Sequence record: PZ386970.1
Strand: one strand, 5' to 3'
Length of the DNA: 64,000 nt
DNA from: a phage
Shown in pieces: positions 18,984-48,500 of the stretch. A program made the translations under genes and the position numbers. The notes under the pieces are model-generated. The model did no database searches and was not told where the DNA came from. It worked only from the letters and a program-made list of their open reading frames with translations. Positions within the stretch are counted from its first letter, which is position 1, and each line of letters starts with the position of its first letter.

Positions 18984-19454
18984 TTAATCATGTTTCCACA
19001 CCCCATCGGTATTTGACCAAAGTCGCTGATTATCTGATCCTCGCCACAGCTTTTTGGTCGGAAGATTTTTCTCATACTTCCCATCAATAATAACATCAAC
19101 ATATTTAAGCATTTCTAGCTGTTTAATATCTTCAAACTTATATCCTGTCCACAACCAAATGCTTTTATTAGGATAAAGATTTTTTACTGTTTGAACAATG
19201 CAATGAATAACATCTCGGTTATCAGGATAGAGAGGGTCACCTCCGGTTATAGTCAATCCTTCTATATAATCATTATTCAAACATTCAATTAATTGTTCTA
19301 GTGTTTCACCAGTGAATGGAATACCATTTCTAGCATTCCATGTTGATTTATTATAACACCCTTCGCATTTATGCAAACACCCTGTAACGAAAAGAACGAC
19401 CCTACAACCAGGGCCATTCACAAAATCGCAAGGATAAAACCTATCATAATTCAT
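18984..19454 (-). CDS. nrdG: Anaerobic ribonucleotide reductase activating protein NrdG (radical SAM)
   Basis: 156 aa; radical-SAM cluster motif GCLHKCEGCYN; position next to nrdD. Confidence 0.93.
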   Translation of the reverse strand: MNYDRFYPCDFVNGPGCRVVLFVTGCLHKCEGCYNKSTWNARNGIPFTGETLEQLIECLNNDYIEGLTITGGDPLYPDNRDVIHCIVQTVKNLYPNKSIWLWTGYKFEDIKQLEMLKYVDVIIDGKYEKNLPTKKLWRGSDNQRLWSNTDGVWKHD

Positions 19455-20724
19455 TGGTGTTTAACCCTATGCATGATTTCTTTATTTTTACCGAGATTAA
19501 ATCCGCGTTCGTTCGGATTTCCCAAATAGCCGCATGTTCTTCTTATGGTGTTCATCTTTTTAGGATCAGTTTCTCCACAAACTGAACAAACAAATCCGTT
19601 TTCAGTAGGAGTCATTTCATGAGTACTTCCGCATGTAAAACATTTATCCACTGGCATATTAACACCAAAATAATCTAAATGTTGTGCAGCATAATCCCAG
19701 ACAGCCTCAAGACCCTTTAAATTGTTTTTCATATCTGGAAGTTCAACATAAGAAATGTGACCACCTGTCGCAATGAAATGATATGGCGCTTCACGAGAAA
19801 TCTTTTCAAATGGAGTAATATTTTCTTCTACTGAAACATGGAAACTGTTAGTGTACCAGCCTTTATCGGTAACATCTTTTACACTTCCATATTTTTCTGT
19901 GTCTAGTTTACAGAAACGATAACAAAGGTTTTCAGCAGGAGTAGAATACAAACTAAAAGCAAATCCAGTTCTTTCAGTCCACTGTTTAAGATGAGCATTC
20001 ATTTTAGTTAAAATTTCTTGCCCAATATCACGACCAACAAGAATATTCAATTCATGAATACCAATGTATCCTAAAGACACTGAACTTCTACCATTTTTAA
20101 ATAACTCAATTATGTCATCATCAGGTTTAAGACGAACCCCGAATGCACCTTCTTGGTAAAGAATAGGAGCAACAGTCGCTTTAACTCCTTTTAAGGAACT
20201 AATTCTACACATCAAAGCTTCAAAACATAAATCCATTCGTTCATTGAATAATTCAACAAATTTCTGTTCATTGAACTGTGTTCCAATATAAGAATCTAAT
20301 GCGATACGAGGAAGATTCAGTGTTACAACACCGAGATTATTACGTCCATCAAGAATTTCATTACCAGTCGAATCTTTCCATACACTCAAGAAACTACGGC
20401 AGCCCATTGGAGAAACAGGAACAGATGAACCGGTAATAGCTTTATTATTCTTAACAGAAATAATGTCAGGATACATTCTTTTGCTTGCACATTCTAACGC
20501 AAGTTGTTTAATATCATAGTTCGGATCATCTTTATAAAGATTAACACCCTCTTCAACAAACATAACAAGTTTAGGAAAAATAGGAGTTATCCCATCACGA
20601 CCAAGACCTTTAATACGATTTTTCAGAATTGCTTTCTGAATCATTCGTTCAGTCCAGTCAGTTCCCGTACCAAATGTAATTGTTACAAAAGGCGTTTGTC
20701 CATTAGAGCTGAAAAGTGTATTTA
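19451..20724 (-). CDS. nrdD: Anaerobic ribonucleoside-triphosphate reductase NrdD, exon 2 (5' boundary approximate, 20705-20725)
   Basis: C-terminal glycyl-radical motif RTCGYLGNP and Zn-ribbon cysteines (CFTCGS…CSVCG); open frame continues upstream into the intron region. Confidence 0.85.
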
Positions 20725-20756
20725 CTTCATCATTATATTCAGCATGAGTCGCAAAT

Positions 20757-21527
20757 TCATGCCCGTTTATATGAAACAACAAAATTTGGATAGTCCATAG
20801 ATATGCAACGTTCTTTTATAGTGCTAGGATGAAAATTTAGCGCTTTAGCTGCTTCTATATAAGACGTATACTTAATACCGTCAACAACCACATATTCAGG
20901 AACTTTATGAATAGTAGTCTTAATACTCAAAACAAGAGGATGAGTTTCGACTTCACTTTCAGTGCAATTTAAATATTCCGCTGCTTTTTTAAAACTTCTA
21001 AAAGTTTTATTTTTAAGCTTTATCGATACTTGTTTTTTACTTTTTCGACTATTGATATTATTTTGCACATGTTCCTTAGATCTTCCATTTTTAGCATAAT
21101 ATTCAGCTACAGAAGATTTTATATTGTTTTTATGAGATTTGGATAACACTTTACCCTTATGAGCATCTCTTAATTTTTGAATATGTTCTTCAGTATCCGG
21201 ATGTTTATAAAACTTTTTACCGCCTATGGATTTATTTAAACATTTTTTGCTATAAAAATATTTACGTATGACCTCTTCTTCATGTTTTAATGCATCTTTA
21301 TAACTATCAAATGTTTTTAAAATTATCCATTTAGTAGGTGTATCAGTTTTTAAGCGTTCATTTATATACTTAGATGACGTTGTGTAAGTTTTCCAGTTTG
21401 TGGGCTTGTTTTTAATTGTTCTAAATTTTTTATAACCGATATAAATGTCGCCATTAGAAAACTTAACTAAGTATGTAAATGCGTCTTTATCTTTTATTTT
21501 AGTACAACGTCTTTTTATCCATTTCAT
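20757..21527 (-). CDS. Intron-encoded GIY-YIG homing endonuclease with NUMOD3-like repeats and C-terminal helix-turn-helix
   Basis: 256 aa; N-terminal YLVKFSNGDIYIGYKK…KWIILKTF…EEEVIRKY (GIY-YIG-like), basic SKSHKNNIKSS repeats, C-terminal DGIKYTSYIEAAKALNFHPSTIKERC (I-TevI-type HTH). Confidence 0.8.
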   Translation of the reverse strand: MKWIKRRCTKIKDKDAFTYLVKFSNGDIYIGYKKFRTIKNKPTNWKTYTTSSKYINERLKTDTPTKWIILKTFDSYKDALKHEEEVIRKYFYSKKCLNKSIGGKKFYKHPDTEEHIQKLRDAHKGKVLSKSHKNNIKSSVAEYYAKNGRSKEHVQNNINSRKSKKQVSIKLKNKTFRSFKKAAEYLNCTESEVETHPLVLSIKTTIHKVPEYVVVDGIKYTSYIEAAKALNFHPSTIKERCISMDYPNFVVSYKRA

Positions 21528-21556
21528 TGTTTCACCTCGTATTCATAAGATAATCT

Positions 21557-21564
21557 TATTTATA
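21557..21564 (-). promoter_or_regulatory. T4-type late promoter inside the nrdD intron, upstream of the homing-endonuclease ORF
   Basis: Minus-strand TATAAATA ~30 nt upstream of the endonuclease ATG. Confidence 0.7.
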
Positions 21565-21776
21565 CAAGATGACTGCTGCATGTCGCCATGCAGATTAGAC
21601 TATATCTTCATCTTTCGATGCCGGCCGTTTCGAATAGCATTAGCTTCTATTCTACACCGTTACATTCATCACGGTTAGTCGTTAGGCATTTAGTTCAAAA
21701 GAACATTTAGCACGGGATTGTCTTACTAGAGAGGTTCCCCGTTTAGACCGGTTTTACATGAGCCTGAATTAAATTA

Positions 21777-22314
21777 ACTCATACGCCTGAAATGCATCGT
21801 ATACATCTTTTTCTGTTTTAGATTGAGCATAATTCAACGCATCAGCGATTTGCCATTTTTCTGCATCCTCAATATGTTTTGCATAGGTGCGTTTAACATA
21901 AGGAGAAAGTACTTTATCTACATTTGCAAAAGTCGTTCCGCCGTATTGATGGGAAGCAACCTGTGCAGTAATTTGTGCCATAATTGCAGTAGCAACGCCA
22001 ATTGATTTAGGAGTTTCAATCTGTGCATTACCTAGCTTAAATCCATTTTCAAGCATTCCTTTTAAATCTACTAAACAGCAATTAGTAAAAGGAAGAGCAG
22101 GGGAATAATCAATATCGTGCACGTGAATAATTCCGCTTTCATGCGCTTTCATAATAAAAGACGGGACCATATTTTTGGCAATGTGTTTAGACACAATACC
22201 AGCCATAAGGTCCCGTTGAGTTGGAAAAACACGAGAATCTTTATTAGCATTCTCGTTCAAAAGATCTTTATTAGTTTTATGAATTAATCCTTCAATTTCT
22301 TTTTCAATTTTCAT
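21777..22314 (-). CDS. nrdD: Anaerobic ribonucleoside-triphosphate reductase NrdD, exon 1 (3' boundary approximate)
   Basis: 181 aa N-terminal frame ends within 3 codons of the intron start; a GAGT/GCTCA P1 pairing suggests a splice site near 21777. Confidence 0.8.
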
Positions 22315-22784
22315 TTTAAACTCTTTCTAAGCTGCTTTTTGAATGAAGCTATTAATTGTGGTTTAGTATCAGATTCATTATATTCAAATCCTCTTTGAAG
22401 CATCTCAGCCATCATTTCCTCTTTACCTAAACGAGAAAATTCCTTTGATTTATCTCCAACAAAATTAGGATGGATATTATTATCAGAATAATCTTGTTTC
22501 AAATAAGCAAGAAGAGCTTCAAGCCATTCTAGGTAGTCGACATCACGGCCTTTAAGACCAGAACGGTTGAACTTATGCTTCATTTGACCTTCTGCTGCGT
22601 TGCACAGATTACAGAGTAATCCACGAACTCTACCGGCTTTTGGCCCGTTTAATTCGTGGTCGTGGTCAAGATGGTTACCTTGAACATCAGGGTCTAATTC
22701 ACGGTGGCAAATAGGACACTTACCGTTCTGTGCATCATAAAATTTTTGTTTTTCTTCTTTATATTTTGCGCCTGATAATAACAT
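22311..22784 (-). CDS. 49: Endonuclease VII (Holliday-junction resolvase) gp49
   Basis: 157 aa; near-identical to recalled T4 gp49 (…KFYDAQNGKCPICHRELDPDVQGNHLDHDHELNGPKAGRVRGLLCNLCNAAEGQMKHKFNRSGLKG…). Confidence 0.95.
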   Translation of the reverse strand: MLLSGAKYKEEKQKFYDAQNGKCPICHRELDPDVQGNHLDHDHELNGPKAGRVRGLLCNLCNAAEGQMKHKFNRSGLKGRDVDYLEWLEALLAYLKQDYSDNNIHPNFVGDKSKEFSRLGKEEMMAEMLQRGFEYNESDTKPQLIASFKKQLRKSLK

Positions 22785-48344: not shown

Positions 48345-48421
<77 letters not shown>

Positions 48422-48425
48422 GATT

Positions 48426-48500
48426 GGTGACCCTGGCTGGTTTCGATCCAGCTACCTATCAGTTATGAGCTGACAGCTCTCCCATTGAGCTACAGGGCCT
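48426..48500 (-). tRNA. tRNA with CAU anticodon (Met, or Ile if lysidine-modified as in T4 tRNA-Ile)
   Basis: Manual cloverleaf: acceptor GGCCCTG/CAGGGTC, D-arm GCTC-AATGGGA-GAGC, anticodon stem GTCAG/CTGAT with loop CTCATAA, T-arm GCTGG-ATCGAAA-CCAGC, 3' ACCA. Confidence 0.8.

Follow-up and report, generated by a model that had tools for sequence, protein, structure and literature searches.

Comparative analysis of a probable mobile group IA intron in nrdD of a Tequatrovirus, a diverged sister of the T4 I-TevII system

The ORF of the T4 td intron is looped out of P6 rather than placed 3' of the core, and I-TevII, the endonuclease of another T4 intron, cleaves downstream of its insertion site. 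The td intron, which encodes I-TevI, resides in a different host gene from the nrdD intron. I-TevI cleaves 23-25 nt upstream of the insertion site, and control of I-TevII by a late promoter and an RBS hairpin has been described (PMC2988022). The T4 nrdD (sunY) intron encodes I-TevII, a GIY-YIG enzyme, whereas the nrdB intron is the one that encodes I-TevIII, an HNH enzyme (PMC2988022 Table 1). Two 2010 reviews, one of them PMC2988022, name no more than three endonucleases encoded in introns of T-even phages. Our literature search found no description of a diverged nrdD lineage; the survey of Sandegren and Sjoberg 2004 may hold one.

We identified an insert in the nrdD gene of a Tequatrovirus within a stretch of 64,000 nucleotides (sequence record PZ386970.1), here called the window. 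We conclude, with a probability of about 0.9, that the insert is a mobile self-splicing group IA intron carrying a diverged GIY-YIG homing endonuclease of the I-TevII family, located at the T4 sunY site (Table 1). The T4 nrdD intron shares with it the host gene, the insertion site and the P1/IGS sequence, as well as the order of parts from 5' to 3': a compact core, a promoter/RBS hairpin, a GIY-YIG ORF of ~257 aa and a short 3' terminal domain. Also common to both are TATAAATA inside the RBS-sequestering hairpin, an identical 19-nt RBS block resembling the homing site, and an ORF that runs into the terminal hairpin. Identity to T4 is ~65% across the intron at the nucleotide level (core, 72%; ORF, 63% for nucleotides and 56% for amino acids) and 95-97% across the exons (exon 1, 96.7%; exon 2 past its first 45 nt, 95.1%). 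Relative to the T4 lineage alone, double-compensatory changes affect thirteen core pairs and four of the seven terminal-hairpin pairs. P7.2 is longer in the window intron, its RBS-hairpin loop has a 9-nt insertion, and its ORF has 256 aa against 258 aa in T4, with a stop codon in the stem of the terminal hairpin rather than in the loop. By these comparisons, the window intron is a distinct, strongly diverged sister lineage of the T4 nrdD intron.

Table 1. Features of the nrdD locus in the window
Feature	Position	Strand	Basis or remark
nrdD exon 1	21777..22314	(-)	codons 1-179 and first base of Tyr180
nrdD exon 2, including glycyl-radical domain	19451..20730	(-)	Pfam NRDD 145-562, Gly_radical
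Group I (IA-type) intron, 1046 nt	20731..21776	(-)	Rfam RF00028, T4 alignment, in-silico splicing
Ribozyme core, 199 nt	21578..21776	(-)	P3, P4, P5, P6/P6a, P7, P7.1, P7.2, P8, P9
P1 5' strand, exon AUGAGU	21777..21782	(-)	pairs with GCUCAU
P10 partner UUCA	21768..21765	(-)	
IGS/P1 3' strand GCUCAU	21763..21758	(-)	
J7/9 dinucleotide AU, candidate P9.0 partner	21594..21595	(-)	between-lineage covariation, T4 alignment
P9 GCAUGGCGACAUGC	21591..21578	(-)	
Hairpin sequestering endonuclease RBS	21532..21572	(-)	-17.3 kcal/mol
T4 late-promoter consensus TATAAATA	21557..21564	(-)	exact match, inside 5' half of RBS hairpin
19-nt block TATGAATACGAGGTGAAAC	21529..21547	(-)	contains RBS, identical in both intron lineages
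GIY-YIG homing endonuclease gene (256 aa), I-TevII homologue	20757..21527	(-)	
7-bp terminal hairpin GGCAUGA/UCAUGCU	20741..20763	(-)	10 nt upstream of 3' splice site
Intron 3' end: AU (candidate P9.0 3' partner) and terminal G (omega-G)	20731..20733	(-)	sequence, J7/9 covariation
Span of lineage-linked silent exon substitutions	20702..21787	(-)	allele comparison

The initial annotation proposed that nrdD is split by a group I intron, and this is borne out by a match to RF00028, by covariation and by the 605-aa NrdD that is restored when the insert is removed. Five intron-less alleles (...TATGAAT/ATGAAGTAAATAC..., the slash marking the insertion point), together with the T4 alignment, fix both junctions unambiguously; the intron-less T2/T6-type nrdD site reads ...TATGAAT/ATGAAGTAAATACTCTCTTTAG.... 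On this evidence the 5' exon, which had been estimated to reach ~21777, ends exactly there, and the 3' exon starts at 20730 instead of ~20724. The insertion point falls inside Tyr180, the same position as that of the T4 nrdD intron. Exon 1 covers positions 1-141 of the Pfam NRDD profile and, if unspliced, would continue through three intron codons to a TAA stop. Aligning the exons to T4 NrdD, a check that the initial annotation had proposed, confirmed that ligation is in frame, with 601 of 605 residues identical. By homology with T4, the intron is predicted to splice.

A targeted scan with the Rfam group I covariance model (RF00028, Intron_gpI), likewise proposed earlier, matched 21812..21576 on the minus strand over the full model (1-253) at 72.3 bits (gathering threshold 50, E 5e-18). 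A default Rfam scan of the whole window at the gathering threshold returned two tRNAs only and missed the intron. Because the targeted scan detects it, we regard this miss as a filter artefact and not as evidence against the intron; it also warns that a default scan of a 64-kb window overlooks an intron scoring 22 bits over threshold. The core motifs quoted in the initial annotation, CUAAACGGGGAACCUCUCUAGUA, GAUAUAGUCU and GCAUGGCGACAUGCAGC, are all present and correspond to P3/P4/P5, P7' and P9. Helices P3-P9 were recovered de novo by RNAalifold. The core comprises 57 pairs, including the P3/P7 pseudoknot and the IA-specific P7.1/P7.2. Pairing cells reach 95.4% in the core versus 35-40% in slid controls, pairs with double changes number 26 versus 2-6, and none of 500 shuffles attained the observed pairing or covariation values. 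P7 is invariant and thus uninformative for covariation. P1 has a U.G wobble at the 5' splice site. The last full codon of exon 1 is GAG in both intron lineages and GAA in all intron-less alleles examined, a replacement by which P1 is completed in both lineages.

At the position equivalent to the terminal hairpin, T4 has GGUAGAG/CUCUACU. The thermodynamics of the window hairpin are unremarkable (z -1.6) and its covariation basis consists of only two lineages. The UGA stop codon of the ORF (20759..20757) lies within the 5' strand of this stem, leaving 26 nt to the 3' splice site, in agreement with the earlier observations that the ORF extends close to the splice site and overlaps the intron 3' structure. 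In the alignment, the candidate P9.0 pairs AU with AU-G here and AA with UU-G in T4; the J7/9 dinucleotide is its putative 5' partner, in line with the assignment reportedly made by Michel et al. 1990. The intron 3' terminus reads ...AAUG. Michel and colleagues reportedly described in 1992 that the 3' tail pairs over a long distance with a peripheral loop of the core; a search by eye found no convincing covarying candidate for this pairing.

The late-promoter consensus that had been noted before the ORF is present as an exact copy of TATAAATA, whose last base is separated from the ATG by 29 nt. The window holds 8 copies of the octamer against 8.4 expected, a chance frequency. What makes this copy significant is therefore not its presence but where it lies and that it is conserved at the homologous place in T4. 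In the near-identical phage SA20RB the same octamer is labelled a late promoter. The hairpin around it sequesters the RBS GAGG (21538..21535) and has a z of -5.75 (T4 counterpart, -5.18), a stability equalled in none of 200 shuffles. Its geometry and stability are those expected if the 5' arm of this SD-sequestering hairpin is absent from late transcripts, and by homology with T4 the endonuclease may be expressed only late. The block TATGAATACGAGGTGAAAC is identical in the window and T4 despite 53% identity of the surrounding spacer, and it overlaps a stretch (21551..21531) resembling the intron-less homing site, which it matches at 17 of 21 positions (shuffle mean 14.6, maximum 18). A homing-site-like stretch was reported for T4 by Loizos et al. 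1994, as relayed in PMC3984707. The similarity seen here, only modestly above the shuffles, is consistent with that report; we do not take it as independent proof.

The endonuclease ORF lies downstream of the P7-P9 block, in agreement with the initial annotation, which placed it after a P7-P8-like block. Its product and I-TevII align along their whole length (56% identity over 256 aa, E 2e-101) with only two gaps of one residue each, and both proteins match phrog_314 at about 102 bits. Of the features first assigned to the protein, GIY-YIG is supported, if marginally, by Pfam SegE_GIY-YIG (PF19835; 27.4 bits, cut-off 25), and the HTH by a weak match. Pfam NUMOD3 was not detected in this protein and is present in 33 of 50 relatives; NUMOD1 is found in the protein at 25.6 bits (cut-off 22.8). 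PF19835 is detected in 25 of the same relatives and PF01541 in 4. The GIY-YIG fold and motifs are seen in silico. Across the 50 relatives Y29, G31, E83 and N98 are invariant and Y19 is nearly so, and the 'GIY' motif reads FTY in the window protein. No conserved counterpart of the catalytic Arg of canonical GIY-YIG enzymes was found, the candidate position 36 being R here and K in I-TevII. Sequence searches with the ORF gave nothing meaningful in the PDB, with no detectable similarity to solved structures, and no family match in NCBIfam. A word-indexed protein search yielded the two lineages and nothing else, and more distant relatives were reached only by exhaustive HMM search. Purifying selection on the ORF is evident in silico, where its long-term dN/dS is 0.26; polymorphism within the lineage (0-4 synonymous versus 0-2 non-synonymous differences per pair) is too sparse for selection to be demonstrable at that level. 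By homology with T4, the 256-aa enzyme is predicted to cleave DNA and to promote homing.

Among ~690 phage records with this nrdD region, the intron is found in ~70, of which 45 belong to the window lineage and about 24 to the T4 lineage. Searches of 50,697 phage records and 5.8 billion proteins turned up no intermediates between the two, and the intron 3' end, searched as an exact 32-mer, gave no matches in IMG/VR. The ORF appears intact in ~41 of the 45 carriers (single-piece tblastn matches at ≥99% identity). Decayed copies include a 479-nt ORF-less derivative in phage 215Ecol030PP, which retains both intron ends, and frameshifted ORFs in F1 and 236Ecol005PP.

We compared silent substitutions around the insertion point in 8 carriers, 2 T4-type alleles and 5 intron-less alleles. 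Changes at -11, -8 and -2 (21787, 21784 and 21778) and at +14, +17 and +20 (20717, 20714 and 20711) are fixed in all carriers examined, and those at +23, +26 and +29 (20708, 20705 and 20702) vary between carriers. The linked changes are -11, -8, +14A and +17T in the window and +8, +11, +14G, +15 and +17A in T4. The codons at +14, +17 and +20 are altered in both intron lineages. The patchy distribution among phages and the co-conversion tracts, partly fixed and partly variable, may be read as indirect evidence for homing. Relative to T4, pS is 0.64 for the intron and 0.22 for the nrdD exons. The neighbouring genes gp49 (0.57) and nrdG (0.45) show as much divergence from T4 as the intron does, which tempers the idea that an old intron entered a young host gene recently and makes vertical descent with homogenised nrdD exons possible.

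The insert might instead no longer be spliced, leaving NrdD as two polypeptides and the endonuclease as a free-standing gene, in the manner of nrdA/mobE in Aeromonas phage Aeh1. The GenBank annotation, with two separate nrdD CDSs and no intron, is in line with this, and split RNR genes that function exist in phages (PMC3653736). We nevertheless consider it highly improbable. The complete core scores above the Rfam threshold and its helices are maintained by compensatory changes, P1 contains the U.G pair and is strengthened in both intron lineages by the silent GAA-to-GAG change, the terminal intron base is G, and the ORF-less derivative retains both intron ends. Moreover, the two exons share codon Tyr180, and exon 2 therefore lacks a separate start codon and RBS at the junction. 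The initial annotation suggested a novel pairing, having taken the T4 nrdD ORF to be I-TevIII, of another endonuclease family; the GIY-YIG gene would then have replaced the original one within the intron. The ORF is indeed GIY-YIG, and divergence from T4 is far greater inside the intron than in the exons. However, T4 nrdD itself encodes the GIY-YIG enzyme I-TevII (T4 RefSeq; PMC2988022 Table 1), so the pairing is canonical and the novelty claim falls. With an end-to-end alignment to I-TevII, and with the ribozyme, promoter/RBS hairpin and 3' hairpin all collinear with T4, such a replacement is scarcely credible; pN is a uniform 0.30 in the N-terminal, linker and C-terminal parts of the protein, which rules out a domain swap.

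It is also conceivable that the intron splices while its endonuclease is an inactive, decaying passenger like T4 I-TevIII, the element being kept by vertical descent or hitch-hiking. The frameshifts or internal deletion in some carriers, the sparse polymorphism and the catalytic Arg without an assigned position all fit this scenario. We judge it unlikely, given that the ORF is intact in the window and nearly identical in most carriers, that the catalytic Tyr, Tyr-x-Gly, Glu and Asn are conserved, that long-term dN/dS is low, and that the varying co-conversion end-points fit repeated homing.

If the insert is, as we conclude, a mobile self-splicing intron, its working may be outlined as follows. 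The nrdD pre-mRNA would be transcribed from upstream promoters, and the core at the intron 5' end would fold into P1-P9. Guanosine would attack after the U of the P1 U.G pair, formed between exon AUGAGU and intron GCUCAU, and the 3' end, ~850 nt downstream, would be drawn in by the terminal hairpin, P9.0 (AU/AU), P10 (UGAA/UUCA) and the terminal G; exon ligation would then restore codon Tyr180 and NrdD. On long transcripts the endonuclease RBS would be locked in an 11-bp stem, so that the enzyme would not be made early. Late in infection, transcription from TATAAATA would begin inside the stem, so that the late RNA would lack the 5' arm and the ORF could be translated. The enzyme would cut intron-less nrdD alleles of co-infecting phages, and double-strand-break repair would copy in the intron with a short stretch of flanking exon.

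The mechanism is ordinary, and the intron represents an uncharacterised sister lineage. The main value of the analysis lies in correcting a mistaken claim of novelty for what is the classical T-even nrdD intron/I-TevII system. The second lineage further supplies phylogenetic covariation for sunY features first defined by mutagenesis, namely the helices of the core, the ORF-overlapping terminal hairpin at the 3' end and the candidate P9.0 pair. The two endonucleases, 56% identical, probably share one target, and the pair suits studies of GIY-YIG specificity, its co-evolution with the homing site, and intron competition. In dozens of GenBank/RefSeq genomes of T4-like phages, the locus is annotated as two nrdD fragments and a stand-alone homing endonuclease, one such record labelling P9 a terminator; these annotations could be corrected.

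Competition between the introns of the Bacillus phages SPO1 and SP82 has been shown experimentally. The window and T4-type introns could be long-separated lineages that compete for the nrdD site in the same way, their endonucleases, which differ at 44% of residues, having diverged in target preference; we regard this as speculative and rather doubtful. Positions +14, +17 and +20 presumably lie around the I-TevII cut position. If the idea holds, the silent changes there could serve as marks of self-immunity or exclusion, and in mixed infections each lineage might exclude the flanking markers of the other, or convert them. The DNA-polymerase introns of SPO1 and SP82 (I-HmuI/I-HmuII) are likewise two diverged intron/endonuclease lineages at the same site in closely related phages (Goodrich-Blair and Shub 1996, as cited in PMC2988022, ref. 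43), but their endonucleases are HNH nicking enzymes, unlike the GIY-YIG pair of nrdD. Likeness of another kind, through the ribozyme cores, is seen in the td intron of the Pseudomonas phiKZ-like phage SL2 and the terminase intron of Aeromonas phage 2L372X, which lie in other host genes and at other insertion sites. With 69-73% identity, both cores, like that of the nrdD intron, score above the Rfam threshold. In the SL2 td intron, a GIY-YIG ORF lies directly downstream of the core, as in the window intron.

The window DNA belongs to a T4-like phage, and its nrdD intron region matches many Tequatrovirus genomes at ~99%. The NRDD domain is divided between two ORFs, with a third ORF lying between them (see table). 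We mapped the junctions by alignment with T4 (NC_000866) and with five intron-less alleles (T6, T2H, Jbel, RB32 and ESh15), and the intron boundaries predicted in this way are unambiguous. The initial annotation had approximated the 5' exon end correctly, at ~21777, whereas the 3' exon, placed there at ~20724, starts at 20730. Joined in silico, the exons encode in frame a 605-aa NrdD that differs from T4 NrdD at only 4 residues. The nrdG gene (18984..19454, minus) overlaps the end of nrdD at 19451 (ATGA overlap). T4 carries the HNH homing-endonuclease gene mobC between nrdD and nrdG, but the window does not.

Features of the nrdD locus (window coordinates)
Feature	Position	Strand	Remark
ORF with N-terminal 141 profile positions of Pfam NRDD	22314..21769	minus	
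Exon 1 end	21777	minus	...GCGTATGAGT at junction
Intron, 1046 nt	21776..20731	minus	TAATTT...ATATAATG
Hairpin	21572..21532	minus	Shine-Dalgarno GAGG in 3' arm
Octamer TATAAATA	21564..21557	minus	in 5' half of hairpin 21572..21532
256-aa ORF		minus	between the two nrdD ORFs
7-bp hairpin	20763..20741	minus	5' arm contains ORF stop codon
Exon 2 start	20730	minus	ATGAAGTAAAT...
ORF with remaining NRDD and glycyl-radical domain	..19451	minus	~1 kb after first NRDD ORF

The nrdD insert is a group I intron. The core proposed in the initial annotation is recognised by the covariance model RF00028, which matched 21812..21576 (minus) with 72.3 bits against a gathering threshold of 50 (E 5e-18) in an Rfam scan limited to 20500..22000. 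An Rfam scan of the whole 64-kb window at the gathering threshold reported two tRNAs only and not the intron, a miss that is an artefact of the speed filter. Negative whole-window Rfam scans are thus no refutation, as a 72-bit intron, 22 bits above the threshold, appears only when 1.5 kb is scanned. The tRNA region at 48345..48499 (minus) holds two tRNA genes only, Arg-TCT and Met-CAT; T4 has eight.

We aligned the core with those of a T4-type intron (phage U5), an ORF-less derivative (phage 215Ecol030PP), a terminase gene (Aeromonas phage 2L372X) and a thymidylate synthase gene (Pseudomonas phage SL2), each of the four scoring 70-105 bits independently in Rfam. RNAalifold recovered P3, P4, P5, P6/P6a, P7.1, P7.2, P8 and P9 de novo, with double changes in 28 of 52 pairs; P1 and the P7 pseudoknot were added to these helices before the pairing statistics. 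Pairing cells amounted to 95.4% versus 35-40% with the partners slid, and 26 pairs covaried versus 2-6 in controls, values reached by none of 500 shuffles. When only the T4 lineage is compared, 13 of the 57 pairs show double-compensatory changes. P1 joins exon AUGAGU to intron GCUCAU and places a U.G pair at the splice site, and the last intron base is G. The last complete codon of exon 1 is GAG in both intron lineages versus GAA in intron-less alleles, a change that completes P1. The helix order P7, P7.1, P7.2, P3', P8, P7' is the IA layout, and the T4 record likewise labels its nrdD intron group IA.

The 256-aa protein matches Pfam SegE_GIY-YIG (27.4 bits, cut-off 25) and NUMOD1 (25.6 bits, cut-off 22.8), and shares 56% of its residues with T4 I-TevII in a full-length alignment (E 2e-101). 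Together with the RF00028 match and the covariation, this bears out the proposal of a group I intron in nrdD carrying a GIY-YIG ORF. Among 5.8 billion proteins, the only two 90%-identity clusters were the window type (64 members) and the T4 type (38 members); an exhaustive profile search added 905 more distant relatives, chiefly seg-like N-terminal domains. Four residues (Y29, G31, E83 and N98) never vary in a 50-sequence alignment, and Y19 is almost constant; together they correspond to Tyr, Tyr-x-Gly, Glu and Asn of GIY-YIG enzymes, and no position could be assigned to the catalytic Arg. The dN/dS relative to I-TevII is 0.26, with silent sites close to saturation.

The hairpin enclosing the ribosome-binding site has a stability of -17.3 kcal/mol (z -5.75; T4 counterpart, z -5.18). 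[quoted passage not shown] The octamer occurs 8 times in the window versus 8.4 expected, so the argument for a late promoter is positional. A 19-nt block, TATGAATACGAGGTGAAAC (21547..21529, minus), is identical in both lineages, while the rest of the spacer is 53% identical. The overlapping stretch 21551..21531 agrees with the homing site of intron-less alleles in 17 of 21 bases (shuffles: mean 14.6, maximum 18), in line with the homing-site-like stretch described in T4 by Loizos et al. (summarised in PMC3984707).

The ORF was also thought to overlap 3' intron structure, and indeed its stop codon (20759..20757, minus), 26 nt short of the 3' splice site, lies inside a hairpin arm, with the same overlap in T4. 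The T4 hairpin at the equivalent position differs in sequence, with both-sided changes in 4 of 7 pairs; the evidence for the window hairpin lies in this covariation, its stability being unexceptional (z -1.6). The bases preceding the terminal G, AU in the window and UU in T4, covary with two J7/9 bases (AU and AA, respectively), which fits a candidate P9.0 pairing. This pairing was defined on the sunY (T4 nrdD) intron, and we presume that it involves these bases.

Among 50,697 phage records, the window type occurs in 45 (>=95% protein identity) and the T4 type in about 24 (~56%), and we detected no intermediates. Of ~690 records that contain this nrdD region, about 620 have no intron or almost none. 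Decay stages include frameshifted ORFs in F1 and 236Ecol005PP. In 215Ecol030PP (PP328843.1, 451..929), a 479-nt window-type derivative has lost most of the endonuclease ORF and still has both intron ends as well as the promoter/RBS and 3' hairpins (Rfam 70.9 bits). This natural mini-intron represents a late step in the homing cycle. Relative to the insertion site, silent exon changes (20702..20717 and 21778..21787, minus) at -11, -8, -2, +14, +17 and +20 are common to all carriers examined, and those at +23, +26 and +29 occur in some carriers and not others; the pattern is a co-conversion signature. The exon-2 codons at +14, +17 and +20 are silently substituted in both lineages, with different bases at +14 and +17. 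They lie near the I-TevII cut site, which we take to be at +13/+15.

Nucleotide identity to T4 is 95-97% in the exons, whereas for the intron as a whole it is ~65% (72% in the core and 63% in the ORF). Of 83 silent differences from T4 in nrdD, 12 fall in the 22 codons surrounding the junction. Silent sites have diverged from T4 by 0.64 in the intron ORF, compared with 0.22 for the nrdD exons, 0.57 for gp49 and 0.45 for nrdG. Both gp49 (22311..22784, minus) and nrdG (pN 0.16) are far more diverged from T4 than the nrdD exons (pN 0.0035). This reflects either a local mosaic pattern or an unusual homogenisation of nrdD, and given a mosaic genome a greater age of the intron than of its surroundings cannot be claimed.

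GenBank records give two nrdD CDSs plus a "homing endonuclease" or hypothetical protein. None of the near-identical records compared annotates the intron; in them, one of the two nrdD CDSs begins within it, and in one record (SA20RB, OL960581.1, 883..910) the P9 hairpin is given as a rho-independent terminator. Ribozyme cores sharing 69-85% identity with parts of the window core occur in Aeromonas phage 2L372X, Pseudomonas phage SL2, Vibrio phages and Phapecoctavirus. They interrupt genes for the terminase large subunit, thymidylate synthase and Vibrio-phage NrdD, and most of these introns are unannotated. A GIY-YIG ORF immediately follows the thymidylate synthase-gene core, and the Vibrio-phage nrdD introns carry HNH or wHTH ORFs.

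We found no paper on a second nrdD intron lineage in literature that did not include the key 2004 survey of Sandegren and Sjoberg; for T-even phages, two 2010 reviews (one being PMC2988022) name no more than three endonucleases encoded in introns. The initial annotation had assigned the T4 nrdD intron ORF to I-TevIII, of another family, and raised a distinct intron/endonuclease combination. This is ruled out: Table 1 of PMC2988022 and the T4 RefSeq record place I-TevII (GIY-YIG) in nrdD and I-TevIII (HNH) in nrdB, so the pairing in the window is canonical. The feature is real, and its mechanism is ordinary and, by homology, well understood. The element is best filed as an uncharacterised lineage, sister to the T4 nrdD intron and its I-TevII.
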